A stretch of 64,000 bases of DNA from Caldisericia bacterium (GCA_040768585.1 JAXGMQ010000001.1:1159299-1223298); one strand, 5' to 3'. Shown: positions 39,409 to 64,000, numbered from the stretch's first letter. Numbers and translations: made by a program. Notes: generated by a model not told the origin, from the letters alone.

Positions 39409-40044
39409 GTGTATTTTACCCGAAGTTCGAGCACAAGCCCTTTTGTTTCGCTAACCTTGGGACAGATGGATAGGAAAACAGAAAAGAAAACGATTCTAGC
39501 GGCGCAGAAGGGTGACGCCGAAGCCTTCGAGAAGCTTTACAATGCATTCAAGCTGGAGTTGTACAGATCAGCGCTGCTCATTATGAAACATCCCGCCGAT
39601 GCTGAGGATGCCGTTGCTGAGACCTTCATCAAGACATTCAGGGCGATCGACAGGTTTGACACGAAGTATCCAATGAGACCTTGGTTACATCGGATACTTC
39701 GGAATGAGTGCAACAACATCTTCAAAAAGAAGAGAACAAAGACTGTACTGTACGACGACTTTGGCACAGATTGGAAAGAGTCAGTGGCTGATAGAGACTC
39801 GAAATGCACATCGACGCTCATCATTGAGGACGAGGAGGATTCGAGACTCATGGAACTCATCGATTCGATGAACGATAGCCACAGAGAGGTTCTGATTCTC
39901 CACTACTACGACGGACTCGATCTAATTAAAATCGCTGAAATCATCGGTGTCCCCATCGGTACCGTGAAGTCGCGACTCTTCCACGCCAGAAAACAGCTTT
40001 TGAAGTCTATCGAAGAGAATGAAGTGATATTGGATAGAGATTGA
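39409..40044 (+). CDS. ECF-family RNA polymerase sigma-70 factor.
   Basis: Region 2 (AFEKLYNAFKLELYRSALLIMKHPADAEDAVAETFIKTFRAIDRFD...RPWLHRILRNECNNIFKK) and region 4 (REVLILHYYDGLDLIKIAEIIGVPIGTVKSRLFHARKQL) are both recognisable. The ORF begins at a GTG at 39409. An in-frame ATG at 39466 (MDRKTEKK...) is an alternative start. Confidence 0.85.
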   Translation: MYFTRSSSTSPFVSLTLGQMDRKTEKKTILAAQKGDAEAFEKLYNAFKLELYRSALLIMKHPADAEDAVAETFIKTFRAIDRFDTKYPMRPWLHRILRNECNNIFKKKRTKTVLYDDFGTDWKESVADRDSKCTSTLIIEDEEDSRLMELIDSMNDSHREVLILHYYDGLDLIKIAEIIGVPIGTVKSRLFHARKQLLKSIEENEVILDRD

Positions 40045-40064
40045 TACAGAGAGAGACAGGGAAT

Positions 40065-44290: not shown

Positions 44291-44294
44291 GATT

Positions 44295-47200
44295 ATGAAA
44301 CGTTTTGTTGCGCCACTGCTTGCCGCTGTTTTTTTCTTCGCTGGTGTGTCGGTGTCAAAGGCTGTATGTAAGGTCGACGTCTACAGTGTTGACGTCAATC
44401 CCGCGGTGTCTCTGGCGAAGGCTTGCTATACGGTCAGTTTTCATATTGAGTGTGCCATGGTGGAGGGCGAGACGTTTGAGGTTCATCTTCCAAGGGACTC
44501 TGAGACGCCGTATGGCTGCCGAACGTGTGACGTTAACATAGACGGCGACTACAAGCACAGGTACGACGTTGAGGGGAATGTGGTAAGGATTCAACTCACG
44601 AGGGGTTTGAGCGCTGGCAGGCATTATTTTCACATCTGCAACGTCACAAATCCCAGCAGCAAAGGGCCACACGTTGTCAGTATCGTGTCCTCCGCCGGGG
44701 TTTTTACCTCAAGACCTTTCAATTTTGCAGACACGGCAATTTCAATCCCAAAGGTCGAAGTGAACCCCGACTATGTCAAGGCGTGTGCTGAATATGAGAT
44801 TACTTTCAAAACATCATCCGATGCCTCAACCGGTTGCGGGTGTTCGAGAAGAACTGTTATATATGTGACATTCCCAAAAAACTTTGTATTCCCCTACGAT
44901 ATTGACCCGCAGTTTGTGCTGGTGAATGGCAGGCCGGCTGATTCGGTCGGTATAATTGACAAGACACTCGTCATCACATCAAGCAGTAAGTTTGTTGCTG
45001 GACAGACCATTAAAATCAAGATTCTAAAAGGTGCTGGTGTCATAAACCCAGAAACCCCTGGGTGGTATTCGCTGAATGTCTACACCTCGGATGACAGAAT
45101 ATCTATCAACAGCGAGAGGTTCTACATCAGACCGTCAACGGTTACAAGAGCCAAGGTGACGCTCGATGACCCTTACACCTGCTCAAAGTCAGGTTTTGTC
45201 GTTGAGTTTATGACGGGCCCCTACGGTCAGATAAAAAAAGGGTCGAAGATTGAACTTATCCTCCCGCCATCATTTGACGTGCCTGATTTTATTCCCGCTG
45301 AGAATCTGTCAGTCAATGACATGCCTGTCATGTCAGAGTCAAGCATCAAATCCAACAATATCGACGGCTGGTCTCAGATTGCGGTGCTCTCGCCTGTTGA
45401 TATTGGGTCTGAGTCAAAGGTTGTGATTATCGTTCTACCAGGCGCTATGATAGCCTTGCCAGACACTCCATCCTATGATTACTCGATCGACGTAAGGACA
45501 GCAACAGAACCAAACAGGGTGCCATCGCTTCCCTTCAGTGTCGACCGTTCGAGGCTTAGAAACGTCAAGCTGACCGCTACTCCCTCCTATGTCTCGCTTC
45601 CTGCGGTTATTCAGGTTGCATTCAGGCTTGGCGGGTGCGGTGATTTGACCTCTGGAATCGACACAATCACTGTGCAGTTTGATGAACTGTTCTGGTTCCC
45701 AGACTCAAAGCTCATGACTGACATAAAGATCAATGGAGTCCCCGTTGACAGACTCGTCATGGTATCCGGCAAACAGATAACAATCTCCCCTCCCAATGAT
45801 ATCCCAGGCGACGAGTGGGTTACAGTTGAGTTTGGAGAAGGTTGTGGTATCAGAAATCCTTCCAAAGCAGGCGAACCTCAGAAGGTGAAGGTGTGGACAA
45901 CAAGAGAGCGAGATGCCTCTGTTTCAAACATCATCCTCTTTGCCACAACTAAAATATCTGGGGTAGCTGTCAGTCTTTCAAAACCCCAAACAGGCAAGTA
46001 TTCGTCCTGCGACATCACCTTTGTCTCAGGTTCAGCTGGAGCGCTGAAGGCAGGCTCACAGCTTCTGCTCAGATTTCCTGAGGGATTTGACTTCAAGGGG
46101 CCGGTCTCGACCCACACCATATTGGTTAACGAAACCAGATGCCGGAGGGTGAGACTCACTGAAAATACGTTGGAACTAACAACCGGCTTGGATATCGAGG
46201 CAGGCACTCAGGTGGGTGTGTCAGTATCGTCAGATGCAAACCTGAGACTGCCAGATGAACCGAGTTACTATCAAATCGAGGTTGCCACCGAGGCTGAACC
46301 AGAGTTTGTGCTGTCGCAGAGGTTCCCAATTGCTGATAAGATTCAATTTGAGTATAAGGTCACACCTGATGAGCCTGATGGGATTGATGAGTGGTATGTC
46401 ACACATCCAACCGTTGAGCTCAGGGCTTTCAACTCGCTCGATGAATTTGCCCAGATTGAGCTTGATATCAACTTTGATGTAAGACCATACAATGGTTCGT
46501 TTGAGATTGATGACGGGTTTACCGTCATAAAGGCTGTCGCAACTGACAAGTTTGGCAACGTGTCAGAACCGCTTGTGCTGAGTTTCGATGTCGACACAAA
46601 CCCGCCAACATTTGAACCTGAATCTGGCACTGTTTACTCAAGAGCCATGTATCACTCAGAGATTGTTGAGATTGATGAACTCAATGACGTTGAGATTGAA
46701 TATGACGAAACTGAGGGTGTGACAGTCGAAAGACAACGGGTAGCCGAACTTGTGAAGGTTTCCTGCAAGGTAGAGACTGAACAAACAAAAACGGTTGAGA
46801 TAACAGCCACCGACGAGGCTGGAAACAGCAACACCTGGGAGCGAATCGTTGTTTTTGATTGGACGGAGCCGATGTTGGAGCTGCCTGATAGGATTACAAC
46901 CGATGAATCGGAGATCACAATCTCTGGAAAAACAGAATCCGGTGCAAGCGTTGTCTGTGATGATGAGATAATAATTTGTGACGATGAGGGCAACTTCACG
47001 CACACCGTCAGTGTCAGTGATGGTTTCTCAAGGTTTTTTTTCACGGCAAAAGATAGGGCTGGAAACTCAAGCACAAAGGTGCTTGCTGTCGAGGCTAATC
47101 TTCAGATTGTGGTGGTTCTGACAATTGGAGAAACCGCGGCAACAATCAATGATGTGCCAACCGAGATTGGTTCAAATCCTGTCTACCTCTCATCCGGCAA

Positions 47201-47477
47201 TGCGATGATACCGCTTCGATTTTTGGCTGAGGCTTTTGACGCGGATGTGGGTTGGGACGAAAAAACTTCGGAAATAACAATCACCGTTGGTGATAAGGTG
47301 ATAGTTGTGAGAGTCGGCAACAGGATAGCAATTGTTGATGGGGAAGTGGTGGAGATGCCAGTTACCCCTGAGATTAAATCGGGCGCGACATTTGTTCCAC
47401 TGCGGTTTATCACCGAATCGTTCGGTTGCCAGCTGGAAGTTGTTGGCAAAAAAATAACAATCACATACAATAAATAG
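44295..47477 (+). CDS. Secreted protein with 5 or more tandem ~125-aa Cys-containing beta-sandwich modules, Ig-like repeats, and two C-terminal CuAO-N1-like modules.
   Basis: RBS AGAGGGGAA. Signal peptide MKRFVAPLLAAVFFFAGVSVSKA. Modules of the form VNG(R/V)P...I..PE.P recur. The C-terminus MIPLRFLAEAFDADVGWDEKTSEITITVGDKVIVVRVGNRIAIVDGEVVEM...ATFVPLRFITESFGCQLEV matches the copper amine oxidase N-terminal-like domain pattern. Confidence 0.75.
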   Translation: MKRFVAPLLAAVFFFAGVSVSKAVCKVDVYSVDVNPAVSLAKACYTVSFHIECAMVEGETFEVHLPRDSETPYGCRTCDVNIDGDYKHRYDVEGNVVRIQLTRGLSAGRHYFHICNVTNPSSKGPHVVSIVSSAGVFTSRPFNFADTAISIPKVEVNPDYVKACAEYEITFKTSSDASTGCGCSRRTVIYVTFPKNFVFPYDIDPQFVLVNGRPADSVGIIDKTLVITSSSKFVAGQTIKIKILKGAGVINPETPGWYSLNVYTSDDRISINSERFYIRPSTVTRAKVTLDDPYTCSKSGFVVEFMTGPYGQIKKGSKIELILPPSFDVPDFIPAENLSVNDMPVMSESSIKSNNIDGWSQIAVLSPVDIGSESKVVIIVLPGAMIALPDTPSYDYSIDVRTATEPNRVPSLPFSVDRSRLRNVKLTATPSYVSLPAVIQVAFRLGGCGDLTSGIDTITVQFDELFWFPDSKLMTDIKINGVPVDRLVMVSGKQITISPPNDIPGDEWVTVEFGEGCGIRNPSKAGEPQKVKVWTTRERDASVSNIILFATTKISGVAVSLSKPQTGKYSSCDITFVSGSAGALKAGSQLLLRFPEGFDFKGPVSTHTILVNETRCRRVRLTENTLELTTGLDIEAGTQVGVSVSSDANLRLPDEPSYYQIEVATEAEPEFVLSQRFPIADKIQFEYKVTPDEPDGIDEWYVTHPTVELRAFNSLDEFAQIELDINFDVRPYNGSFEIDDGFTVIKAVATDKFGNVSEPLVLSFDVDTNPPTFEPESGTVYSRAMYHSEIVEIDELNDVEIEYDETEGVTVERQRVAELVKVSCKVETEQTKTVEITATDEAGNSNTWERIVVFDWTEPMLELPDRITTDESEITISGKTESGASVVCDDEIIICDDEGNFTHTVSVSDGFSRFFFTAKDRAGNSSTKVLAVEANLQIVVVLTIGETAATINDVPTEIGSNPVYLSSGNAMIPLRFLAEAFDADVGWDEKTSEITITVGDKVIVVRVGNRIAIVDGEVVEMPVTPEIKSGATFVPLRFITESFGCQLEVVGKKITITYNK

Positions 47478-49439: not shown

Positions 49440-49485
49440 GGTAATGTGGATGAAAGACACATTACCCAAAAAAAGAAGTGGAGGT

Positions 49486-50406
49486 ATGATGATGAAAAAG
49501 ACGCAATCAATGGTAATTGATGCTTTGATAGATGACATGATTACAAAGTTTTCTCCAAGTGAATTTGAGGAGTTCATAAAATTCCTTCTTAAAGCAATGA
49601 AGTTTGGTTCAAAAAAAACGCCAGATTCAGGGGATAAAGGTGTTGATGTTATTGGCACAATGAGTGCTGGTAGCTTAGCAGATGTTAAAATAAAAATACA
49701 GGTGAAGAAATACGCCAGAGATAGAAAAATTAGTAATGATACTGTGCTACAGCTGAGAGGAACATTGGCACCTGGAGAATATGGTTGTGTAATCACAACA
49801 TCAAGTTTTACAAGTAAAGCTGTAAGTGAAGCAAATGACTGCGCTAAAGGAAAGACTGAAATAACGCTTATAAACGGAATTGATCTTGCTAAACTGGTTT
49901 TGATGAATTTTGATAAAATCTCGAATGAATATCCAGATAGATTTTCAATACGGAGAAGGTTGAATATTCCGCCAGAAGAGAGTTTTGAAGTGGTTGACTC
50001 TAGAGATGATGTAAAAGAAGAACTCAGTGAGGAATCGATGTGTACAACTACCGAAGAAGATGATGACTTTAACACAATTGTTTGTCCGGCTTATGATGGT
50101 GGGGTTGAGAAAACATTTATCCCGAAAAAGGCATGGTGGGCTGTCAAAATTGCAGATAGAAATAAAAGTAAAATTTGCAATATAGCAATATATCAATCAT
50201 CTCCAACTTCTGCAATAACTCATTGGGGTAAGGTTGGAAGAATAGCGGATTACGATGAGACCGGTAAGTGCATTCTTTATTTAGAAGGTGAACCAAAAGA
50301 ATTGACAAACTATGTCAAAAAACCAGGGGGGAAACCTGGAATTCAAGGAACAAAGTATACAACGCTAGATAAACTCCTCAACGCAAAAACACTCGATGAC
50401 CTTTGA
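49486..50406 (+). CDS. Mrr-catalytic-domain (restriction endonuclease-like, PD-(D/E)xK) protein with a C-terminal domain of unknown function.
   Basis: The N-terminal ~150 aa (FEEFIKFLLKAMKF...GDKGVDVIGT...VKIKIQVKKYARDRKISNDTVLQLRGTL...GCVITTSSFTSKAVSEA...ITLINGIDLAKLVL) matches the Mrr_cat pattern. The likely start is the ATG cluster right after a GGAGG at 49486-49494; the ORF track starts at 49444. It sits in an AT-rich segment. Confidence 0.65.
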   Translation: MMMKKTQSMVIDALIDDMITKFSPSEFEEFIKFLLKAMKFGSKKTPDSGDKGVDVIGTMSAGSLADVKIKIQVKKYARDRKISNDTVLQLRGTLAPGEYGCVITTSSFTSKAVSEANDCAKGKTEITLINGIDLAKLVLMNFDKISNEYPDRFSIRRRLNIPPEESFEVVDSRDDVKEELSEESMCTTTEEDDDFNTIVCPAYDGGVEKTFIPKKAWWAVKIADRNKSKICNIAIYQSSPTSAITHWGKVGRIADYDETGKCILYLEGEPKELTNYVKKPGGKPGIQGTKYTTLDKLLNAKTLDDL

Positions 50407-52094: not shown

Positions 52095-52237
52095 ACCTAG
52101 CACCCCCTCTCTTGAAGATATTCTAAGACAGCAGGGCAACAGTAGACAAACAAGATTGGCGTCAGATTCCGTTAAATATGAATCAATCTGTGACATGAAA
52201 ACTGGAAAACTTTCCAACAATGACTAAAATCATCCTC

Positions 52238-52738
52238 ATGTGGATATTCGAAGAAAAAACTCAAATGACTGGTTTTTGGTGGATTATCCTGCTTGTTTTC
52301 CTTGCAACTATTGCTCCCCTTGTGCTTGCCTATGTCTTTGGTGACCTAAGCTCCTTCGCTGAAATCAAGCCTCTTCTGAGCATTGTACTAATTCTCGATG
52401 TTGCGCTTTTTGGCTTCCTGCTTGGTATTATGAGATACCTAGTTGTCAGGTTCGACGAGAAGACGCTGGAGTTTGGTTTTCACCCCTTTGTTGTCAAAGT
52501 CCCTTTTGACAAAATTCAGAGCATCAGAATCAAGAAGTACTCCTTCTGGCAAACGGGTGGGTTTGGCATACGACTTGGCGCAAATCGTAGGTGGAACTAT
52601 GTTGCAAGGACGGGGTGGTTTGTCGAGGTCGACTGGGCAGAGAACAAGCGTCATGGATTTTCGATCACGGACTGTGAGGCGTTTTATGGGGGGATAAAGG
52701 ATTTTCTTGGAGATAGGGCGAGTTTGGAAGAAGGGTAG
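52238..52738 (+). CDS. Small membrane protein with two TM helices and a bacterial PH-like C-terminal domain (tandem paralog 1 of 4).
   Basis: (M)WIFEEKTQMTGFWW parallels the MVYFEEK N-termini of the three downstream paralogs. Two hydrophobic helices are present. The C-terminal FYGGIKDFLGDRA parallels FFKVMKELIGDD in the others. The ORF track begins at an upstream ATG at 52220. Confidence 0.55.
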   Translation: MWIFEEKTQMTGFWWIILLVFLATIAPLVLAYVFGDLSSFAEIKPLLSIVLILDVALFGFLLGIMRYLVVRFDEKTLEFGFHPFVVKVPFDKIQSIRIKKYSFWQTGGFGIRLGANRRWNYVARTGWFVEVDWAENKRHGFSITDCEAFYGGIKDFLGDRASLEEG

Positions 52739-52844
52739 AGATTTCCTGTAATACTTTCATAGAATGTGTGAACAAAATGATTTGGGAGCATCCCAAATGA
52801 GATAAATAGCTTAGTTTGTGGATTCGAATATTTGGAGGTAGAAA

Positions 52845-53312
52845 GTGGTATATTTTGAAGAAAAGGTGAGATATGGATATTGGAGAATGCTTTGGAACAC
52901 GTTACTACCATTATTCGCAATTTATGTATTCATTCGGTTAGATTGTCCTATTTCTGACTTTTTTGGTGAGAATCAGCTAATCTATGAAGTTCTGCTTATA
53001 ATGTTTATTTTCCTAAGTGTATTCAATGTCCTTGTAACAGGACTCTATCAAAAGATAAGGGTACTTGAAGATAGAATTGTGATAGAAGACATATACGCAT
53101 CAAAAAGTGTAATTCCACTCAAAGATATTATTGAAATAAACCTGGCTAAAAAGAAGCTTAGCAAAAATATACCGAGTGATTCAGTTTTTCATTTAGCAGT
53201 TGCCATCCACTATGAAAAGAATCGAAGAAGAGATATTCTAATAGAGGATTATGAAAGCTTTTTCAAAGTTATGAAAGAGCTGATTGGGGACGACAATGTT
53301 GTAACAGTATGA
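52845..53312 (+). CDS. Small two-TM membrane protein, bPH-like (tandem paralog 2 of 4).
   Basis: GTG start 6 nt after a GGAGG. The N-terminus is MVYFEEKVRYGYW. Two TM helices. The C-terminus is EDYESFFKVMKELIGDDNVV. Confidence 0.6.
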   Translation: MVYFEEKVRYGYWRMLWNTLLPLFAIYVFIRLDCPISDFFGENQLIYEVLLIMFIFLSVFNVLVTGLYQKIRVLEDRIVIEDIYASKSVIPLKDIIEINLAKKKLSKNIPSDSVFHLAVAIHYEKNRRRDILIEDYESFFKVMKELIGDDNVVTV

Positions 53313-53384
53313 TGTGTAACATTATGTTGTGAATTCATAGATATATTGAATTTTGATTTGTGTACAAATACCAGGAGGTGAGGT

Positions 53385-53873
53385 GTGGTGTATTTTGAAG
53401 AAAAATTGAATGCAAGTGTGGGATACAGGTTTGTGTTTGCGCTTCTATGGGTTTTTATTGTCTTAGGGATTACATACACTATACCAGTATATGGCTCGTT
53501 TTATCAAAACGGTTCAGCAGGTGCGATAGTGGGTGTTGGTTTTATACTTACCTTTGTCGTATTTATCCTGATTATCACAAGACCTTTTCCAACAACCCTC
53601 AAGGTTTTGAAAAATAGGATTGTGACAATAAGCAATTCCAGCATGTGGAGTATAAACCTGTCAAACATTGAAAAGATAAGTATCACAAGGGATAGTCTTC
53701 GTCTTTTATCCAAGGACAAGCAACATTCGATAATCTTCGTAGAGATTATTCCAAAGAATAAAACGCATTCTGAGTCACGGATAAAGATATGTGACTACCA
53801 CGGTTTCTTTAGCGCCATTAAGGAACTGGTGGGCGAAGAGGTTTTGGACATTCCAGACTATATTGAATTGTGA
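53385..53873 (+). CDS. Small two-TM membrane protein, bPH-like (tandem paralog 3 of 4).
   Basis: AGGAGGTGAGG RBS with a GTG start. The N-terminus is MVYFEEKLNA. Two TM helices. The C-terminus is CDYHGFFSAIKELVGEEV. Confidence 0.6.
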   Translation: MVYFEEKLNASVGYRFVFALLWVFIVLGITYTIPVYGSFYQNGSAGAIVGVGFILTFVVFILIITRPFPTTLKVLKNRIVTISNSSMWSINLSNIEKISITRDSLRLLSKDKQHSIIFVEIIPKNKTHSESRIKICDYHGFFSAIKELVGEEVLDIPDYIEL

Positions 53874-53893
53874 GAATAGAAAGGGAATAGTCT

Positions 53894-54370
53894 ATGGTAT
53901 TTTTTGAAGAAACAACGAGATTTCCGATGATAGGAAAGGTCATTATATTTATTTGTCTATTTACTTTGTGGGCCTGGTTGTTGATAGCATCTTTTTCTCA
54001 CAGCGTTAGTCACGTCTCTGATACTGTAACAGCGGTTTCTGTATCCACAATCTTTATAGCATTCCTTTTTATTGTTTTCGGGAATTACTACACGACGATT
54101 CGAGTTTTGAGAGACAAAATAATTGTTTGTAAAAGCGGTTTATCCACAGGAATCCATAAAGATCAAATCAAAAAAGTGTATCTGGCAGAATCAAGCATTG
54201 AGTGGTTATCAAGGAGCCCAGGAAGGGTAAGGGTTAGTGTTGTTATTGAAAGGAAAGAAGAAACACTTAATTGGGAAACACTTGTAAAACTTGAAGATTA
54301 TCAATCCTTCCTCGACGCCATGGTCAAGCTAGTTGGAGAAGATAAGGTTGTATACCCCCCATCGGTATGA
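53894..54370 (+). CDS. Small two-TM membrane protein, bPH-like (tandem paralog 4 of 4).
   Basis: AAAGGGAA RBS with an ATG start. The N-terminus is MVFFEETTRF. Two TM helices. The C-terminus is EDYQSFLDAMVKLVGEDKVV. Confidence 0.6.
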   Translation: MVFFEETTRFPMIGKVIIFICLFTLWAWLLIASFSHSVSHVSDTVTAVSVSTIFIAFLFIVFGNYYTTIRVLRDKIIVCKSGLSTGIHKDQIKKVYLAESSIEWLSRSPGRVRVSVVIERKEETLNWETLVKLEDYQSFLDAMVKLVGEDKVVYPPSV

Positions 54371-55427: not shown

Positions 55428-55813
55428 ACAGCTGATCATAACGTTTTTGCCGCATAAATAGGTATGAATCGATGGGTGACCACAGAGCTGTAGTGGCTTG
55501 GGTCACCCATTTTTGAGTTACTCTTTAAAGTATTGGGTTCTTGTTGTGGTTTTCGGTCAGTGTGAGAGGCGCTGTATTCTTCTAAGAAGGTATTGCCCTA
55601 ATATGATTTGTCCATTATTTCTTGCATCCGTGGAATTTTATGATAATTGCCAGATGATTCTTGTTTTGAATCTCCCAGTGATGTTAACGGTTGGAGTTGT
55701 GGATTGTCGAAATATTTCACAGATTAACAAAATATTTAGCATGCGATAAACACACTACCTGTAAATGGTTGATAATGACTCATAGGATATTCTCATGTTT
55801 TTAAGGAGGTGTC

Positions 55814-57937
55814 ATGAAAAATAGTTTTATTCGATTGTTTGCTGTTTTGGCTATTGTGGTTGGTGTTTTATTGTCAGCTTCGTGTGGGGGTGATTATGGA
55901 ATGTCTTGCGTAATCGAGAACACAAAACAGGCAAGCAAATGGCGACAGGAAAAAAGTTTACCAAGTAAAGAGTCTGGGGATATTGACTCAACAAAATGGG
56001 GTGGCGATTTCAGCTTTGATGACCCAACTGTGTTTGGTGAGGAAAGTGAATCTGAGAGGGAGACTCAAAAAGAACGAGACCAAATAAAGAACTTAGACGA
56101 GATAGCAGATTTTACAGGGGAAAGGTTTGAGTATTTCTACATCGATGGGGATGAAGATAATGGTTCTAATGCTCAGGGAGAAAAGAATTGTGTAGATTAC
56201 ATATCGCTTAGCTGGAGTCCCGATTTCAAGCCACTAAATGGGCTAAGGTTGAAGATGAACGCAGGTGAAGTCCTGTATATTGCATTCTATGTCAGGAACA
56301 ACACCGAGAATGTGATTGAATACTATCTGAATCATGGTGATCCTATCAGATTGAATCCCAAAGAAGTCATGGAATTTCAGCACAAAATACAATGCACAAA
56401 GATGGATAAAAGATTTGAAGACTATTATGTTGGTGCAGGATATGCAGAGATTGAGGGAGAAGAAAGAAGCTGGAAAAATGCCTGTGGTTTGTTGGAGATA
56501 AATGTTGAGAGGATGGATATAAAGGAGTACCCAGTTGTTTGGCGAACTCCACACATGTTTTTGTCAAAAGGTTTTCTTTTCGGTATCGAAGTTTTTGATG
56601 AGACCATTATTGTAGCAGAAAAAGGTCATGCGGAGACTCCTTGCGGGAGTCCTAAGCTAATTTCAGCCTATGACAGGTCAACAGGAGAATATCTTTGGAA
56701 AATGGGGCAAGGCACTCAACCAGATGGTTCGTGGTTCAACATAGGCGGATTCGAGTATGATGATGGTAAACTTTATCTGTATGAAAGCTATACTGGTAGA
56801 AATTTTATTGATACAGTCAGCTTTAGTTTTGATCAAAATAGTAAGAATTTGAGGGTTTTGGATATCAGAAGTGGGGAAGAATTGGAGTTTAATGAGGAAG
56901 AAGTTTTCTCATTTTTTCTGCGCAAACAATTCGAAGAATCAGGAGAAAAATATATTTTGATGCATAACAATCGGCAAAGAACCGCACCTTCTTTAGTCGA
57001 TCTCGAACAAGGAAAAGAAGTCTGTCAGTTGAGAGGGAGTGTCTACTCCTATGCAGTATTAGGGCAAAATATCTACACATATGAGTTGGATTCAATATCA
57101 TCTGCATCTTTTGATTTTACAGATTATAAAACTGTTCGGGAGGAATACAGACAATGGATAATTCAACATTCCAAAATTAGAAAATACTCCTTTGAACGTG
57201 GATTCATTCAGGAAAAGAAAGCAGATATTGTTGGGAGATTTCAAATCTTTGGTGACAAGGTTTACTTCATTCAATCAGATAAAGCATTGGGAGGAGAATG
57301 CACATTCAGAGAAGATGGTGAATTTTATAATGATACATCAATCCTGAAGATCAATCCTGAAACACTCGAAACGGAATGGTCACATGAGCTGAAAAAGGTT
57401 TCTCTATCAGAAGATTCTAGCATAGACAATCGGAGACATTATCAATTTGTTGATAACACGGTTGTGATAATTTCTGAAAAAGATGTCTATGGAATTGACT
57501 CAAACACAGGAAAAATTGTCTGGGAAAATAATGCCTTTGTGGGATTGCTAGATGACACAAAACAACTCGATGGTAATACATGTGTTGTGTTCCACAACGG
57601 AACAACTGAATCCGAATCTACCTTTATGTTATATGTGGATGCAAGCACGGGGAGGATAGCAAAAATTGAAAAGCTTGAACCCAAGATTACTTCAGAACAA
57701 AGTGAACGTCTACGTGTAAATTGGTACAAAGAAAGCAGCGATGGTTACTTAATTTGTGAGCATTATTGGCTAGATCCAAAAACACATGAAATCCTTGGAA
57801 TAAACGAGGGAGAAGATCCACACATACTGTCAGACATTGGAAACATTGTAGATGGATACATGTTTTATATCGAGCAGGATTGGAATAAAGATGAATACAA
57901 AAGAAAACCTCAATTGGTCTGCAAAAAGATTTATTAA
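55814..57937 (+). CDS. Lipoprotein with PQQ-like beta-propeller repeats (tandem paralog 1 of 4 or more).
   Basis: AAGGAGG RBS. A signal peptide ends in the lipobox-like LSASC. It is followed by the conserved GGDYGMSCVIENTKQ motif. Repeats carry the G-x-x-LW signature (GEYLWKMGQG, GKIVWENNAF). Confidence 0.7.
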   Translation: MKNSFIRLFAVLAIVVGVLLSASCGGDYGMSCVIENTKQASKWRQEKSLPSKESGDIDSTKWGGDFSFDDPTVFGEESESERETQKERDQIKNLDEIADFTGERFEYFYIDGDEDNGSNAQGEKNCVDYISLSWSPDFKPLNGLRLKMNAGEVLYIAFYVRNNTENVIEYYLNHGDPIRLNPKEVMEFQHKIQCTKMDKRFEDYYVGAGYAEIEGEERSWKNACGLLEINVERMDIKEYPVVWRTPHMFLSKGFLFGIEVFDETIIVAEKGHAETPCGSPKLISAYDRSTGEYLWKMGQGTQPDGSWFNIGGFEYDDGKLYLYESYTGRNFIDTVSFSFDQNSKNLRVLDIRSGEELEFNEEEVFSFFLRKQFEESGEKYILMHNNRQRTAPSLVDLEQGKEVCQLRGSVYSYAVLGQNIYTYELDSISSASFDFTDYKTVREEYRQWIIQHSKIRKYSFERGFIQEKKADIVGRFQIFGDKVYFIQSDKALGGECTFREDGEFYNDTSILKINPETLETEWSHELKKVSLSEDSSIDNRRHYQFVDNTVVIISEKDVYGIDSNTGKIVWENNAFVGLLDDTKQLDGNTCVVFHNGTTESESTFMLYVDASTGRIAKIEKLEPKITSEQSERLRVNWYKESSDGYLICEHYWLDPKTHEILGINEGEDPHILSDIGNIVDGYMFYIEQDWNKDEYKRKPQLVCKKIY

Positions 57938-58018
57938 ATGATGACCCAGGCTTGTTTGGTGTGAATCTGCGTTTCTTGTTGTGTGTTTAGTTTTGATTAT
58001 ATAAAGGAGGTTTTTAAG

Positions 58019-60124
58019 GTGCGAATATCTAGAGTTTTGCTATCAACTGTTGTTGTGGTGTTGCTGACAATTTCCTTTGTTTCATGTGGGGGAGATTATG
58101 GGATGAACCGCATCATCGAAAACACCAACAAAACCAGACTATATAGACCGGTTATAGAAGACAGTCGAGTGCCACCTAAGACTACAGATAATAAAACCAA
58201 GAAGGGTGAGAGCAGCAGGCAATTCTTTGGAGGTGGTTATCTAAATACTACCTGGAATTTTGCTGTTCCATCTGATGTCACATTTCCTGTTGTTGACCAA
58301 TTCGCATATGTGAATACAAAACACAAAGAAGAAGCAGATAGATTAAAGATTGAAAGACAGGAACTTATTGATGACGCTACAAGTGAGGAGTGCAAACTAA
58401 AAATAACATGGGAAAGTGGTTATATCAAAAAAGATAGGTCTGTTTACGTTGATTTGCCCATAGGTCAAACAACAGAGCATTTTTTCAATCTACTCAATAA
58501 GTACAAAACACCAATTCAGCTAAAGCTAAAAGAAGGTTTCGCCAATGATGGTTTTATGCCAAAATCAACAGAGACAAAAATAATTGAGCCAGAACAAATT
58601 GCCTACATTTATTTTCAATACACCCGGACATTAGAGAATGCCAATAAGACAATATTCAAAGACATTTTCTCGTGCATGGACATCGAATTTGTCACAGACA
58701 TAGAAGGAATCGCATTCGATTACGATAAAATGCAAAAGATTGATGTCTATACATATCCGGTTGATTTGAATCGCTTTGACAAGGACGAGAAAGAAATCGT
58801 GTGGACCAAGTTTGTTGATACTTGTTGTGATTTCGTGATTGACCATAAAGTCATAGGGAATGTTATTTGTACAAAGAATTCAAGATGTTTATACGGCAGT
58901 TGTTTTCAAAAGTTTGTAGAATTTTATGATGTTAGAGATGGTAGACGGATAAGGAACTTTCCCTTTCATGTAGATGATGTGATACGTAATTCATTATCAG
59001 ATTATTACTTCGAACAAGACGGAAAGCTCTACATCCAGTGTAGCGAAAACAAAGAAAAACTGTTGGAATCAAAAGATGTTGATCCTGTTTGTCAGAAAGA
59101 GACTATAAAAATAATCTATGAGACAAAGTGCTTTGATATAAACACATGTGAAGAGATTCCTGTAACAGAGGAAGAATATATGACTGCTTACAGAAGGCAC
59201 AAAGCGAATGGTAACGACAGGTATATCGAACTTAAAAGGCATAACAAAATTATTCAATGTCAGAATGAAAAGGTAGTAAAAGAAGAGTGGATTGAGCTGA
59301 TATGCACAAGCTTTGATGGGGAAAATGTTTTCTGGACAGCCGATATGGGAGTACTGGTTGAATACCATGAAATGCAAATTGTCTCACAGGACAACAATTG
59401 TTGCATCGTGGTAAATTCTGACAACGAGACAATAAGAACTCTAACTAGTGTCTCAATGAAAGACGGGAGCATATTGACACGAGTTGAATACCCAAAAACC
59501 GAATCTGGTAATGATAGTTACAAGTTAATACAATCTACACCTTATGGGGCTTTGTTGTTCGGTGGAACTTGTAGTCATGGTGATGAAATGGGTTTTGTTA
59601 ATGTCAAATGGCTCGAGATGCTTGATACCAGAACACTTAAACCGATATACAAGGTTGATATGGTTGATGAGTTACGAACCGTAGAGAATAGTCTACCATT
59701 TTTGCATCTCGAATATGTGATATTTGATAATTTTTTCTACCACCAATCTGTTTGCATTGATTTGAAAACGGGAAAACAGCTTTGGAAAGGTGGATACGAC
59801 TACAATACTATTGTCTATAAAAAGGACAATAATCTGGTTTTATCAGATCATGAAAGTAAATTGACAAGGATTAACATGAGAACAGGGGAGATTGTTTGGC
59901 AAACAGGCTACAACCACGCTCAAAGCTGCACCAGACCTAAAGGAGACGTTATTTTGTGGTATGATATGTGGGTTGATTATGAGACAGGTGTTGTGCTTGG
60001 GAAAATGAAGTCTTCTGACCAGGAGAAAAAACAAATAACGATTGTCAGCGTTAATCCGGAATGCGTGATATATGTTGACAGAAATTATGGAGACTTCATG
60101 TTTTATTGCGAAAGGTTCAAGTAG
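58019..60124 (+). CDS. Lipoprotein with PQQ-like repeats (tandem paralog 2).
   Basis: The likely start is the GTG at 58019, 8 nt after an AAGGAGG; the ORF track begins at an upstream GTG at 57983. The leader is (M)RISRVLLSTVVVVLLTISFVSC, then GGDYGMNRIIENTNKTR. Repeats include GKQLWKGGYDY and GEIVWQTGY. The CFDINTCEEIPVTEEEY motif is shared with paralog 3. Confidence 0.7.
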   Translation: MRISRVLLSTVVVVLLTISFVSCGGDYGMNRIIENTNKTRLYRPVIEDSRVPPKTTDNKTKKGESSRQFFGGGYLNTTWNFAVPSDVTFPVVDQFAYVNTKHKEEADRLKIERQELIDDATSEECKLKITWESGYIKKDRSVYVDLPIGQTTEHFFNLLNKYKTPIQLKLKEGFANDGFMPKSTETKIIEPEQIAYIYFQYTRTLENANKTIFKDIFSCMDIEFVTDIEGIAFDYDKMQKIDVYTYPVDLNRFDKDEKEIVWTKFVDTCCDFVIDHKVIGNVICTKNSRCLYGSCFQKFVEFYDVRDGRRIRNFPFHVDDVIRNSLSDYYFEQDGKLYIQCSENKEKLLESKDVDPVCQKETIKIIYETKCFDINTCEEIPVTEEEYMTAYRRHKANGNDRYIELKRHNKIIQCQNEKVVKEEWIELICTSFDGENVFWTADMGVLVEYHEMQIVSQDNNCCIVVNSDNETIRTLTSVSMKDGSILTRVEYPKTESGNDSYKLIQSTPYGALLFGGTCSHGDEMGFVNVKWLEMLDTRTLKPIYKVDMVDELRTVENSLPFLHLEYVIFDNFFYHQSVCIDLKTGKQLWKGGYDYNTIVYKKDNNLVLSDHESKLTRINMRTGEIVWQTGYNHAQSCTRPKGDVILWYDMWVDYETGVVLGKMKSSDQEKKQITIVSVNPECVIYVDRNYGDFMFYCERFK

Positions 60125-60170
60125 TGTTTGAATTTTTCGTGTTTGATTGCAATTTGTTGGAGGTGAGTGC

Positions 60171-62351
60171 GTGAGACCAAGAGTTTTGTGTTTATCGTTT
60201 TTAGCCGTTGCCGTGTTCCTTGTTTCATGCGACAACAGCATGAATCGTATTATCGAGAACACCAACAAAACAAGAGAAAACCGTGGTGGGTATGTGCTAG
60301 TGGCACGGAATTCACAAGAAAAAGCAGACAGCGTAAGCGCTGATTTTTCAAATACCACAGGAGTGCACAGGAAGAAAAAAACTGTACCTGTGAAGAATCC
60401 TGTGCTAGAACTGATTGATTCAACAGATTCAACTTGTTGTCCAAACAACAGCTTAAGTTATTCAATTATTCACACGAATCCGTACCAGATAATGGCAGAT
60501 GAGTTGCAAAGAGCGGCTACTCTTGAGAGCGCGATTGCAGAAATCGAGAATGAGCAACCCGATGCCCCAAGCAAGCTCAGAGCGTCAGTTGATGGAAAAC
60601 CCATGATCTGGGGGATGTACTATGTCCCGTTTAGCATAAGCCAATACTCAAGTGGGTTTCAAATCAACATGATAAATGATTACAACCTTCCAATTAGAGT
60701 CACAAGAAACAAAGATACAGAGACTGTTTTTGACTTCAGTCTATATGAAGATTTTGTGATTCCAGCAAAGGGTTATCACAAATTCTATGTTTCTTATAAA
60801 AGAACAGAAGCGAATGCTCATCAGATCAAGTTCTTCGATGTCCTATCTGTTCTTGATTACGAGTTTGTCACAGACTACAAGGAACGCATCGAATATGACT
60901 TTAGCAAGTCCTGCAAGATTGATGTCATGACATACCCGATTGATAATTCTCCACCAGGACCGTTTGAGACAAAGACCGTTTGGAAGACTAAAACACAGGC
61001 ACGAGATTTTCAGATAAAGATTTTCGGGAATATTGTGTGTGTAGAAGCACACTACGGTTATTACGGCAGTAGTTGGTTGGATTTTATCGAGCTTGTTGAT
61101 ATCAGAGATGGTAAAATGATTAGGGAATTCAACTACTACAGAGAACCTGTTTGGTTCGATAACCAAAGAAACACTGACAATTACTTTGTTGCAAATGATA
61201 TGCTGTACTTGCAGTGTAGAAAACCAATGCCTATGGGTGAGTCGAGTATGGATTTGACAAAAGAAAAAAGAGAGATTCTTGAGACAAGGTGTTTTGACAT
61301 TAACACTTGCGAGGAGATTCCAATTACTGAAAATGAATTCACATTGGCAGAGAGTGCATACTATTCATTATCTGATGATAGAAAAATTGATATAAATAAG
61401 GAAATCATTGAGTACGTCGATGAGAAATATGGCTCTCGTAAAGAAAAGAAAAAAACTACTGTAAAATGCTCAAGTCCTGACAAAAGCAATGTGTTCTGGG
61501 AGAAAACAATTTATGAAGGACAGACTGACGGACAAACCTACATCATCTCACAGGACATAGAACACCTATTCTTATTGCATAAGGGAGAAGATTTATCATA
61601 TAAGATGGAAAACACAATTCTGAAGATGTCAATGGCAGATGGCAAGGTGTTGGGCAAATATGAGATAGAAATTGAAGAAGTGCCAATGGAAGGGCCACAT
61701 AGCGCATTTGCATATATTGTCAGGCACAGACCATGTGGATTGGTTATATTCTACGGAAAATGTTTGCATGGAAATGAATCTAGTCATGCTTCTTTTAATA
61801 GATTTGAAATCATTGACAAAGACACGTTTGAATCAGTTTTCCAGTGGCAGTTTGATGATTTCATAATTGGTGGAGATATTCATGATGTGCCAGATAGGCT
61901 AGATAATGTGTTGTTTTACGACAACCTTATGATTTGCGGTAAAGGGGATATCCACTGTTTCGACATGGAAAAGAGGGAGTTGCTTTGGAAAACCGCAGTC
62001 TATGAGTCATATAATCCAAATTTCATGGTGTATGATGATAAGTATCTGTTTGTAAAAGGGGGTGAGACGATTTTTGCGCTTGATATAGATTCTGGCAAGG
62101 TTCTCTGGTTCAACCAACTTCAAAATATCAGTCAAAGAAGAGAAAAGCCAGAGGGAGAATGTGTTATTTGGAAAGATATGTGGTTGGATACAAAAACTGG
62201 CAGAGTGCTTGGGAAAATAGCAGACAGTAAGACAACATGGAGCAATTACCCACTGGTAGTCAGAGTTAACTCCGACTATCTGCTGTATGTTCAACGCGAT
62301 ACGTCTGTATACCCAGGAGGGGCGTATCTTGTGATGGAAAGGTTTGAATAA
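60171..62351 (+). CDS. Lipoprotein with PQQ-like repeats (tandem paralog 3).
   Basis: The likely start is the GTG at 60171, 8 nt after a GGAGG; the ORF track begins at a TTG at 60147. The leader is (M)RPRVLCLSFLAVAVFLVSC, then DNSMNRIIENTNKTR. Repeats include RELLWKTAVYE and GKVLWFNQLQ. Confidence 0.7.
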   Translation: MRPRVLCLSFLAVAVFLVSCDNSMNRIIENTNKTRENRGGYVLVARNSQEKADSVSADFSNTTGVHRKKKTVPVKNPVLELIDSTDSTCCPNNSLSYSIIHTNPYQIMADELQRAATLESAIAEIENEQPDAPSKLRASVDGKPMIWGMYYVPFSISQYSSGFQINMINDYNLPIRVTRNKDTETVFDFSLYEDFVIPAKGYHKFYVSYKRTEANAHQIKFFDVLSVLDYEFVTDYKERIEYDFSKSCKIDVMTYPIDNSPPGPFETKTVWKTKTQARDFQIKIFGNIVCVEAHYGYYGSSWLDFIELVDIRDGKMIREFNYYREPVWFDNQRNTDNYFVANDMLYLQCRKPMPMGESSMDLTKEKREILETRCFDINTCEEIPITENEFTLAESAYYSLSDDRKIDINKEIIEYVDEKYGSRKEKKKTTVKCSSPDKSNVFWEKTIYEGQTDGQTYIISQDIEHLFLLHKGEDLSYKMENTILKMSMADGKVLGKYEIEIEEVPMEGPHSAFAYIVRHRPCGLVIFYGKCLHGNESSHASFNRFEIIDKDTFESVFQWQFDDFIIGGDIHDVPDRLDNVLFYDNLMICGKGDIHCFDMEKRELLWKTAVYESYNPNFMVYDDKYLFVKGGETIFALDIDSGKVLWFNQLQNISQRREKPEGECVIWKDMWLDTKTGRVLGKIADSKTTWSNYPLVVRVNSDYLLYVQRDTSVYPGGAYLVMERFE

Positions 62352-62412
62352 TAAGTCCGAGGCATATAGATTTTGCTTTGGGGCTTGCAAATCAATAAAT
62401 TGGAGGATTGGT

Positions 62413-64000
62413 GTGAGGAAAACATTATGCATTTTGATAGTTCTTTCGGTAGCATTTACAACTCTTACTTCATGTGGGGGTGATGATGGGATGAGCAGAA
62501 TCATCGAGAACACAAAACAGACAAGCTCTTGGCGACAAAGCTATAAGTTTAAACCAAAACGGGAAAAAATCACAAGACAAACAAAACTCATGAAAACTGA
62601 TAATCTGGACTTTACAAACCTTTTGGACACAGAAGTCTACCCCGATATTTCTGTTGAAGGTATTTTTAGCACCAGAGAAATCAATAGGCGTATCCAGTTT
62701 AGTTGGGACAAAGATGATTTCAACTCTAAAAGTCTTGATTTGACTATGTTTTTAGGGCAGATAAGGGATGTTGTCTTTTATGTGAAGAATGTGAGTGATT
62801 CAACCGTTGTATTAGAATTTAACAATACACTTCCAAATTGCCTTTTATATCCTGAAGATGTCTATGTGGCTTCAGAAACTGAAAGTATTGAAAACAAGCT
62901 ATACATCAAGTCAGCTCTTCACGAACTTAATCCAGGTGAAACTGTGGAAGTGCAAGCAGAAATTCATTGTCTAGCCAACCAAACCGACAAATTATTAATC
63001 AATAATGTTGTTGATTTCGCGCTAGAAGAAGTTGAGACAAAAAAGGTTTTCAACTCTAAAGGTTGTTTGGCATTTCTCAATTTGAGAATCAACATCTCAA
63101 CTGATGATATTGTCTGGAAAACACAGTATGATACGAGAACCAACAGTAGTGAAATTGAGATTGTCAACGGTGTATTGTTGCTAAAGCACTATATGACAAG
63201 AGAATCTCCTTTTAGGATGATTTACAATGTGACGGCAATCAACCCAATTACAGGAGAAGTTCTTTGGGACTGGATTCAACCAGACCCAGATAGCAAGCAC
63301 AAGCGTCCAGACCTGGGCAAGCTTGTGGTTGATAGTGAAAAACTTCTAATTAAATTATATGGCGTTCATTATGAGTACGATGAACAAACTGATACATATG
63401 AAAAGAATTTCCTAGACAGACTTTTCTGGGCTGTTGATTTACACACAGGGGAGTGTCTGCCAGATGATGAGCAATCTGTAATAGAGCAGATGTATCAGAC
63501 TGAATATAGAAAAGATGGTGTGAGATATGAGTTTGTAGGTTACGATGAGTCAAATCTTATTGATAAGAAAACTGGAAAAGCACTCTGGTCATATGATGGA
63601 ACACGTATTTCATCTTTTGTAGTACAAGATGAAATGGTTCTTATACATGAGTTTGAATCATATTTTTCTGCCGATAGTCGTCTTGTTTTATACTCTTTGG
63701 CTGGGGAAAAACTAATGGATTGGGACTTCGATGAAGAAGGAAAGTTTTTCAAAATTGGAAACAATGTGATTTTTGTTGAGGGAGATGTAATATTTGGTGA
63801 GTATGGAGGGTGCTGGATAAATTCAACTTTTGACACGGTTATTTATGGAGTAGACATAGAAACCATGGATTTTCTTTGGAAATACACCAACACTAAAGAT
63901 GATGGGAAAAGTCAAATAACAGCGAGTAACAATTATCTTTCATATGGTGATATCTTCTTTGTTAATTGTGGTTCTGAGTTTGTTGGCATTGACTCAGACA
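62413..64000 (+). CDS. Lipoprotein with PQQ-like repeats (tandem paralog 4); 3' end lies beyond the window.
   Basis: GTG start 5 nt after a GGAGG. The leader is (M)RKTLCILIVLSVAFTTLTSC, then GGDDGMSRIIENTKQTSSWRQ (compare GGDYGMSCVIENTKQASKWRQ in paralog 1). The frame stays open to position 64000. Repeats include GEVLWDW and GKALWSYDG. Confidence 0.7.
   Translation, partial: MRKTLCILIVLSVAFTTLTSCGGDDGMSRIIENTKQTSSWRQSYKFKPKREKITRQTKLMKTDNLDFTNLLDTEVYPDISVEGIFSTREINRRIQFSWDKDDFNSKSLDLTMFLGQIRDVVFYVKNVSDSTVVLEFNNTLPNCLLYPEDVYVASETESIENKLYIKSALHELNPGETVEVQAEIHCLANQTDKLLINNVVDFALEEVETKKVFNSKGCLAFLNLRINISTDDIVWKTQYDTRTNSSEIEIVNGVLLLKHYMTRESPFRMIYNVTAINPITGEVLWDWIQPDPDSKHKRPDLGKLVVDSEKLLIKLYGVHYEYDEQTDTYEKNFLDRLFWAVDLHTGECLPDDEQSVIEQMYQTEYRKDGVRYEFVGYDESNLIDKKTGKALWSYDGTRISSFVVQDEMVLIHEFESYFSADSRLVLYSLAGEKLMDWDFDEEGKFFKIGNNVIFVEGDVIFGEYGGCWINSTFDTVIYGVDIETMDFLWKYTNTKDDGKSQITASNNYLSYGDIFFVNCGSEFVGIDSD

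Follow-up and report, generated by a model that had tools for sequence, protein, structure and literature searches.

Four tandem propeller lipoprotein-type paralogs of a Caldisericia bacterium share a conserved peptide directly after the predicted lipidation cysteine

A stretch of 64,000 nucleotides (nt) from a Caldisericia bacterium (GCA_040768585.1 JAXGMQ010000001.1:1159299-1223298, hereafter the window) ends in a tandem array of four paralogous genes, g1 to g4, whose products combine a signal peptide of lipobox type, a Cys that is probably lipidated, a short polar peptide conserved immediately behind this Cys, and strongly diverged bodies that likely fold into eight-bladed propellers of the PQQ_2/BamB/YxaL type (PQQ, pyrroloquinoline quinone). 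The peptide forms the most conserved window of the whole alignment, and comparison of its codons points to purifying selection on the amino-acid sequence. We read the array as a lineage-specific set of propeller lipoproteins that would serve as binding or scaffold modules, with the shared peptide as their docking motif, and we give this reading an even chance of being right.

The array and the peptide behind the cysteine

Open reading frame (ORF) analysis of the window gave exactly four paralogs in tandem on the + strand, all in the same direction, with lengths given below in amino acids (aa) and starts assigned with the help of ribosome-binding sites (RBSs):

g1, 55814-57937, + strand: predicted lipoprotein precursor of 707 aa, signal peptide aa 1-23, Cys24 at 55883-55885 (ORF, RBS, lipobox rule)
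g2, 58019-60124, + strand: predicted lipoprotein precursor of 701 aa, GTG start, Cys23 at 58085-58087 (ORF, RBS, lipobox rule)
g3, 60171-62351, + strand: predicted lipoprotein precursor of 726 aa, GTG start, Cys20 at 60228-60230 (ORF, RBS, lipobox rule)
g4, 62413-64000, + strand: first 529 of 683 aa, GTG start, Cys21 at 62473-62475 (ORF, RBS, PQQ_2)

A preliminary description of this DNA had spoken of four or more tandem paralogous lipoproteins. The tandem lipoprotein-type paralogs stand, while their number is exactly four, the next two genes downstream, which encode 315 aa without a signal peptide and 374 aa with an N-terminal transmembrane (TM) segment, being unrelated by hhalign (probability <1% for the 374-aa protein). 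A PQQ_2/dockerin protein encoded at 37724-39283 was likewise rejected as a family member (hhalign probability <1%). The last gene, g4, extends 465 nt beyond the window end, and its full length of 683 aa was taken from identical public contigs. Each gene has a good RBS, as the preliminary description had claimed, the canonical sites being AAGGAGG at 55803-55809 (g1) and 58004-58010 (g2), GGAGGTGA at 60159-60166 (g3) and GGAGGA at 62402-62407 (g4). The longest-ORF starts of g2 and g3 lie upstream of GTG 58019 and GTG 60171, which are most likely the true starts: AAGGAGG precedes the first by 8 nt and GGAGGTGA the second by 4 nt, and both are used by the JGI and NCBI gene calls; the 701-aa version of g2 is the call of both. 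The product of g1 is a 'hypothetical protein' in the NCBI Caldisericia metagenome-assembled genomes and that of g4 a 'PQQ-binding-like beta-propeller repeat protein', and the present assignment is of use for annotation, three of the four genes being 'hypothetical protein' in NCBI.

The signal peptides were judged by a regular-expression version of PROSITE PS51257, which asks for a K/R-containing n-region, a hydrophobic h-region and a Cys at residues 15-35, with the lipobox pattern [LIVMFWSTAG](2)-[LIVMFYSTAGCQ]-[AGS]-C. All four N-termini pass, in keeping with the lipobox-like ends noticed earlier, the Cys standing at residue 24, 23, 20 and 21 in g1 to g4 and the maximum 12-aa hydropathy amounting to 2.86-3.22. 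In the alignment the Cys is invariant in all four proteins although the signal peptides are otherwise diverged. Ten other secreted proteins of the window, eight of which carry a C-terminal Cu_amine_oxidN1 module, have ordinary signal peptides without a lipobox Cys. Lipidation of g1 to g4 at the Cys is probable by this pattern, and nearly all bacteria possess lgt and lsp.

Directly after the Cys follows the conserved peptide:

g1, 55883-55945, + strand: post-Cys peptide CGGDYGMSCVIENTKQASKWR, within the largest direct-repeat family D1 (15 kb scanned)
g2, 58085-58147, + strand: post-Cys peptide CGGDYGMNRIIENTNKTRLYR (alignment, repeat scan, DNA pattern)
g3, 60228-60284, + strand: post-Cys peptide CDNSMNRIIENTNKTRENR, its core two residues nearer to the Cys than that of g1, g2 or g4
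g4, 62473-62535, + strand: post-Cys peptide CGGDDGMSRIIENTKQTSSWR (alignment, repeat scan, DNA pattern)

All four peptides had been quoted exactly in the preliminary description, and their consensus is (GGD[YD]G)-M-x-(R/C)-(I/V)-I-E-N-T. The residues directly after the Cys are GGDYG, GGDDG or DNSMN; two residues (GG) are missing from g3, where the core M-x-R-I-I-E-N-T is found at +5 and not +7 from the Cys, and conservation is highest at +7 to +14. The best 14-column window of the alignment starts at the Cys and reaches a mean pairwise identity of 0.714, the next best being 0.476; it lies 5.5 standard deviations (sd) above the alignment-wide mean of 0.151 (sd 0.103), and the signal peptides score only 0.25, which makes the mature N-terminus and not the leader the conserved element. 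Over their full length the proteins share a pairwise identity of 16.5-30.6%, with the sub-pairs g1/g4 and g2/g3. A six-frame search of the 64 kb located IENT at only four sites, those of g1 to g4, and a degenerate DNA pattern for M-x-R-I-I-E-N-T-(K/N) matched g2, g3 and g4, with 0 matches expected in shuffles.

Codons were compared at residues shared by two paralogs. Identical codons make up 43-55% in the motif vs 36-54% in the rest of the genes, and CGC, CGT and AGA all serve as codons of the conserved Arg. Only the pair g1/g4 is exceptional, with 12/14 identical codons in the motif vs 47% elsewhere. Since the synonymous sites of the motif have drifted like those of the rest of the genes, selection acts on the peptide and not on the DNA. 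On this comparison, the post-Cys peptide is held by purifying selection on its amino-acid sequence, and recent gene conversion, save perhaps for a part in g1/g4, cannot account for the block. The array is a clean example of purifying selection on a motif in paralogs that are otherwise extremely diverged. The motif is polar and its helical hydrophobic moment is low (0.11-0.27), by which an amphipathic helix lying on the membrane surface or embedded in the membrane was ruled out.

Propeller bodies and distribution of the family

Behind the motif comes a poorly conserved, charged/polar-rich linker whose length is very different among the four copies, followed by a beta-strand region at roughly residues 125-235 that was weakly modelled by AlphaFold2 and is a probable beta-sandwich. 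From about residue 240-270 to the C-terminus, eight hairpin blocks of the form h-D-x-x-(T/S)-G-x-x-h-(W/h) are aligned in all four paralogs, giving the eight-fold repeated four-stranded blade of a PQQ-like propeller:

g1 beta-propeller, 56531-57934, + strand: ~aa 240-707, eight hairpins, sub-threshold PQQ and PQQ_2 matches
g2 beta-propeller, 58793-60121, + strand: ~aa 259-701
g3 beta-propeller, 60978-62348, + strand: ~aa 270-726, boundaries estimated from the alignment, PQQ_2 E=2e-5
g4 beta-propeller, 63085-64000, + strand: from ~aa 225, running off the window (PQQ_2 score, alignment)

The PQQ-like propeller signatures claimed earlier are thus present as aligned hairpins, and T/SG-x-x-(L/I/V)-W signatures are found in the bodies. 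Full-length g4 scores 33.8 bits with Pfam PQQ_2 (PF13360), above the gathering score of 27.6, whereas g1 (23.3 bits), g2 (20.6 bits) and g3 (24.8 bits) stay under it, with E values of 2e-5 to 4e-4. The block CFDINTCEEIP(V/I)TE(E/N)E, described as common to copies 2 and 3, was indeed located in g2 and g3, and the vicinal Cys pairs of these two proteins are not kept across the paralogs.

Structure prediction, which the preliminary description had proposed as a check on the propeller, returned an all-beta repeated fold at low confidence. The AlphaFold2 models were built on 4-sequence alignments and have a mean pLDDT of 45 and 53; that of g1 is all-beta from residue 241. They suffice for recognizing the all-beta repeated fold, not for placing the motif or defining the middle domain. 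Foldseek top matches of the g1 model were the propellers of tetrathionate hydrolase, BamB, YxaL and YncE, and the family profile found weak matches among PDB sequences to PQQ alcohol dehydrogenases, tetrathionate hydrolase and BamB, covering one or two blades each. Similarity to a PQQ dehydrogenase was seen with PDB chain 22vi_A (E=3.8e-5 over ~70-130 residues), and g4 scored 21.3 bits over ~75 residues with the PQQ-dependent dehydrogenase model TIGR03075, far from its cutoff of 480. With the BamB equivalog models TIGR03300/NF008351, g2 to g4 reached 13.6-24.2 bits vs cutoffs of 285/423, and g1 gave no match.

An exhaustive profile search (HMMER) covered 1.84 billion representative proteins and returned 1,543 proteins at E<=1e-3, nearly all of them matching at profile positions ~520-700, in several stretches. 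Among these representatives no protein was better than E=1e-23 besides the paralogs themselves, and no additional members in which conservation of the motif could be followed were found. A word-index search for further members likewise gave nothing beyond the paralogs and generic propellers, and word-index searches with the short N-terminal region returned no protein at all, g1 to g4 included. About 30 of the ~150 best propeller relatives pass the lipobox rule, and the motif is carried by none of the ~150. Scans with the motif DNA pattern covered 185,579 GTDB species-representative genomes and a large set of metagenome contigs; they gave 44 and 95 matches, respectively, each single and none with an upstream signal peptide and Cys, and these scattered matches look like chance. 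Neither collection returned the array's own contigs, though the pattern matches the window three times, and the negative result covers other organisms only, close relatives excepted. Outside the propeller repeats, the four proteins are, as far as these searches reach, an orphan family in one species. Public contigs from several metagenomes carry the array itself, the one of 2.17 Mb with the NCBI proteins HPF49725-HPF49728; JGI samples 3300009778, 3300025847 and 3300010350 are among those in which the organism occurs.

Two observations stand beside these scans. The GTDB representative of the species may lack or mask the locus, or the species may be absent from the collection; if the locus is lacking, the array would be strain-variable. 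One match, from an uncultured member of the Planctomycetia (L035 2849-2874, and L070), shows a hydrophobic N-terminal segment followed by M-P-R-I-I-E-N-T-N-K-A-T-Q; it has no Cys, is single-copy and is probably a coincidence.

A proposed docking role and the alternatives

The host bacterium appears to have no true outer membrane. Caldiserica are without lipopolysaccharide (LPS) genes (PMC5007114), Caldisericum exile has no detectable BamA (PMC4104836), and the phylum has been discussed among the lineages that lost the outer membrane (bioRxiv 10.1101/2021.05.31.446380), although an outer membrane-like envelope was seen in C. exile by electron microscopy (quoted in PMC4104836). From sequence, we infer a chain of modules for each protein of the array: a type-II signal peptide, a lipid-modified Cys, and then the conserved polar peptide of ~15-20 residues, (GGD[YD]G)-M-x-R-I-I-E-N-T-(KQ/NK)-T. 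The variable charged linker would act as a flexible tether that presents the beta-sandwich and the eight-bladed propeller at the cell surface, and the proteins would probably sit on the outer face of the cytoplasmic membrane. The propellers are probably non-catalytic binding or scaffold modules and not enzymes. The conserved peptide would then be a short linear docking motif, tying the paralogs to a common partner or to each other near the membrane.

Several points weigh against this proposal. In both AlphaFold2 models, themselves of low confidence, the motif is a low-confidence helix that is docked to nothing. Lipidation is predicted from the pattern. Only four sequences of one organism are available, so that the conservation over 15 residues could partly reflect history, and for g1 and g4 the proportion of identical codons is higher in the motif than in the rest of the genes.

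A docking motif is nevertheless our best guess when set against a code read by the lipoprotein-sorting machinery. In the latter case, the post-Cys peptide would be a sorting, retention or export signal, for instance to an outer sheath-like layer of Caldisericum, comparable to Lol-avoidance or to the lipoprotein export signal (LES) of Bacteroidota. In favour of it, each of the four proteins has the motif straight behind the acylated Cys, in the region where known sorting codes sit (PMC5080379), and C. exile shows the outer membrane-like envelope mentioned above (quoted in PMC4104836). Its register to the Cys is not fixed, however, g3 being two residues short, whereas position is critical in the LES (PMC5080379); conservation peaks at +7 to +14 and not at +2 to +6; the motif is confined to four paralogs and occurs in none of the ~150 best propeller relatives, ~30 of which pass the lipobox rule; and neither BamA nor LPS has been reported for the phylum (PMC4104836, PMC5007114). 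A register-locked sorting code is disfavoured because the peptide is polar, stands at the base of a variable linker, is shifted in g3 and is found in only these four proteins, and we consider a sorting signal unlikely.

A bolder proposal is that C-(GGDxG)-M-x-R-I-I-E-N-T is a new lineage-specific targeting or docking signal of Caldisericota lipoproteins, directed to a dedicated partner or envelope layer. The enigmatic outer sheath-like envelope of the Caldisericota, without BamA and LPS (PMC4104836, PMC5007114), gives it a setting, and the candidate partners are four small two-TM proteins encoded upstream of the array or the paralogs themselves as a hetero-oligomer. The proposal is speculative and its chance of being correct is small. 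Were a functional docking or targeting role true, the peptide would be among the very few sequence-specific signals in the mature N-terminus of bacterial lipoproteins and would open a way into the cell envelope of the Caldisericota, of which little is understood.

It is quite improbable that g1 to g4 are ordinary secreted proteins cut by signal peptidase I (SPI), with the Cys as first mature residue or as a disulfide partner. In favour of such cleavage are the residues before the Cys, where S at -1 together with A, V or T at -2 would also suit some SPI sites, the Cys-rich composition of the proteins (11-21 Cys each), and the origin of the lipobox call in a regular-expression rule. Opposed to it are the invariance of the Cys at +1 amid a diverged signal peptide, the F or L at -3 in g2 to g4, which suits a lipobox better than an AXA site, and the other secreted proteins of the window, whose signal peptides end without a lipobox Cys.

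We attach an equally low probability to the view that the conserved block is a functionless remnant of recent gene conversion or homogenisation of the 5' ends. No DNA repeat that the paralogs have in common is longer than the block (families D1 and D2), and the 12/14 identical codons of g1/g4 fit such an event. For the other five pairs, though, codon identity in the block is no higher than in the bodies, the conserved Arg has three different codons, and the DNA of the adjacent signal peptide is not conserved. Selection on the peptide accounts for these features.

A signal at the nucleotide level is very unlikely. According to this explanation, Shine-Dalgarno (SD)-like GGGGGTGAT would drive an internal start of a leaderless cytoplasmic isoform M-x-R-I-I-E-N-T, or a pause after the signal peptide. 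SD-like codons for G-G-D (GGGGGTGAT or GGGGGAGAT) indeed stand 6-7 nt before the invariant ATG in g1, g2 and g4:

SD-like G-G-D element: 55886-55903 (g1), 58088-58105 (g2), 62476-62493 (g4)

Anti-SD pairing before the internal ATG amounts to -16.6 (g1), -11.4 (g2) and -15.8 (g4) kcal/mol, compared with -9 to -15 kcal/mol for the annotated starts and an average of -3.9 +/- 3.0 for all ATGs of the array; the Met is invariant, and in some automated JGI annotations it serves as the start of g3 and g4 (P0159, P0163). Nonetheless, g3 is without the element (-0.3 kcal/mol), all of the upstream starts are preceded by a canonical RBS of their own and followed by a well-formed signal peptide, and the codon-usage-weighted mean over the G-G-D codings is -11.7 kcal/mol, with 61% of them at or below -11. 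Because nearly any coding of G-G-D pairs strongly, the SD-like element is best taken as a by-product of the peptide and not as evidence of selection, and a selected internal SD element was rejected.

The preliminary description had further pictured a phase- or antigenically variable family of surface lipoproteins. The tandem, highly diverged paralogs in an AT-rich stretch adjoining cell-envelope genes would suit such a family, as would a transposon that knocks out g1 in part of the natural population. Comparison of samples does not support this idea, three 22-kb loci from three samples being identical or 1 single-nucleotide polymorphism (SNP) apart, and repeat scans of the array revealed no simple-sequence or homopolymer tracts, no invertible or flanking inverted repeats that could switch a promoter, and no silent cassettes. 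Each gene retains an intact RBS, and the signal peptides are not the conserved part. Variability of this kind is therefore highly improbable, and the variation across samples that had been anticipated is reduced to near-identical sequence with a single polymorphism, an IS1595-family transposon insertion in g1:

Target site TTAGAAAA in g1, 57177-57184, + strand: 8-bp duplication flanking the insertion, empty in the window

The insertion splits g1 after codon 457 on 18 contigs, and the gene is intact on 12. The inserted element measures 3,305 bp, has perfect 15-bp terminal inverted repeats GGGCATTATGCACTT and encodes a 292-aa DDE_Tnp_IS1595 transposase together with a 763-aa HSDR_N/N6_Mtase protein, the latter passenger being a type IIG-like restriction-modification protein. 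The occupied site was seen in L147 2-3306, L144 7372-7511, L145 and L148. The flanks of the insertion allele are 100% identical to the intact allele, and the contigs of the insertion alleles end exactly at the junctions, which suggests that occupied and empty populations are mixed. As g1 is interrupted on many contigs, it is dispensable in nature, and its interruption is ordinary transposon mutagenesis, not programmed variation.

Identity with BamB, the outer-membrane protein assembly lipoprotein, is effectively refuted: BamB too combines a lipoprotein N-terminus with a PQQ-like propeller and is among the best sequence and structure matches, yet the TIGR03300 score is 24 bits (g3) vs a cutoff of 285, the proteins have an additional domain at the N-terminus and are about twice as long as BamB, they occur in four divergent copies, and C. 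exile is without detectable BamA (PMC4104836).

Neighbourhood and comparison with known systems

The genes of the array are separated by gaps of 81 nt (g1-g2), 46 nt (g2-g3) and 61 nt (g3-g4), and 386 nt precede g1. From the short gaps, g1 to g4 are probably one transcription unit. Promoter and terminator scans of the array gave weak consensus matches only, and Rfam and tRNA scans of the window had no matches.

Promoter-like TAAACA-18-GATAAT, 55747-55776, + strand: in the 386-nt gap upstream of g1 (consensus scan only, weak)
Four tandem small paralogs, 52220-54370, + strand: 172, 155, 162 and 158 aa, 1.4 kb upstream of the array
Five giant ORFs (1795, 3465, 947, 2661 and 2940 aa) and ORFs of 655 and 1060 aa, 56-35971 and 42323-47477, + strand
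PQQ_2 propeller with C-terminal type I dockerin, 37724-39283, - strand: secreted, 519 aa, in a local low-GC patch at 36-38 kb (41% GC)
Extracytoplasmic function (ECF) sigma factor and 761-aa probable anti-sigma factor, 39409-42326, + strand: adjoining the dockerin gene

The small paralogs share M-V-(Y/F)-F-E-E at the N-terminus, are predicted to have two TM segments, and carry a conserved domain of ~80 aa at the C-terminus; they have no Pfam or NCBIfam match. Together with two thioredoxins they lie directly upstream of g1. Their equal copy number and proximity provide a lead, and no more than these two features, to the four small two-TM proteins as possible partners of the four lipoproteins. 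Also nearby are a GT2 glycosyltransferase, an Mrr-like nuclease and an NHL/Cu_amine_oxidN1 protein.

In the giant cluster, the proteins with a clear N-terminus have ordinary signal peptides without a lipobox Cys. Of the seven, the 947-aa ORF has no Pfam match at all, and the other six share, at the C-terminus, Glucodextran_B and/or Ig-like domains together with Cu_amine_oxidN1. Most of the length of these proteins is without a Pfam match. The cluster looks like one of cell-wall or S-layer-anchored surface proteins.

The array had also been described as AT-rich against the giant genes, and this holds for the composition, with 36-40% guanine plus cytosine (GC) in the array vs 45-51% in the giants. 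The boundary is a different one: GC drops from 45-51% to 35-45% from ~49 kb on, upstream of g1 and not at it, and the low-GC stretch continues ~3 kb beyond the window end (L003, to ~21000), after which GC is ~49%. These data support the array as part of an accessory AT-rich stretch adjoining the cell-envelope gene cluster. The low-GC stretch starts near the gene for the Mrr-like restriction nuclease (49444-50406) and takes in, besides the array and both unrelated genes downstream of it, the NHL/Cu_amine_oxidN1 gene, the thioredoxins and the small TM paralogs.

Among known systems, the Mycoplasma Vlp/Vsp and the Borrelia paralogous lipoproteins are encoded by tandem genes that are conserved at the 5' end and divergent in the body. 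In those families, the conserved part consists of the 5' untranslated region and the signal peptide, and variation arises by repeats, inversions or cassettes. The g1 to g4 genes resemble these families in being tandem paralogs with divergent bodies and differ in their diverged signal peptides, in an array where the search for a switching element found none, and in a sequence that is stable across samples.

The LES of Bacteroidota is C-X-K-(D/E)2-X, a loose acidic motif at +2 to +6 whose position is critical (PMC5080379), and it is likewise a short conserved peptide straight after the lipidated Cys. The sequences following the Cys in g1 to g4 (GGDYG, GGDDG, DNSMN) do not correspond to this definition. 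Unlike the LES, the peptide of the array is long (+2 to ~+20), highly specific and mostly uncharged/polar, and its register is shifted in one copy; the LES is displayed by many unrelated surface lipoproteins of an outer-membrane bacterium, whereas the present peptide is restricted to four paralogs.

With the PQQ alcohol/methanol dehydrogenases, the similarity of g1 to g4 is weak and local, extending over one or two blades. Biosynthesis of PQQ needs O2 and is accordingly unlikely in this anaerobic lineage. The closest relatives in architecture are PQQ_2 proteins including BamB (E. coli YfgL) and Bacillus YxaL, which have the same blade type, with the hairpin h-D-x-x-T-G-x-x-h-W repeated eight times. 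BamB is likewise a lipoprotein, its partner BamA not being expected in this phylum, and YxaL is a secreted, extracytoplasmic eight-bladed propeller of the single-membrane genus Bacillus. The family thus represents a very narrow new addition to the well-known class of PQQ-like propeller lipoproteins, which will not surprise the specialist. In contrast to BamB and YxaL, which span 370-390 aa, the proteins of the array are ~700 aa long and add to the propeller an extra N-terminal peptide, a linker and a beta-sandwich.

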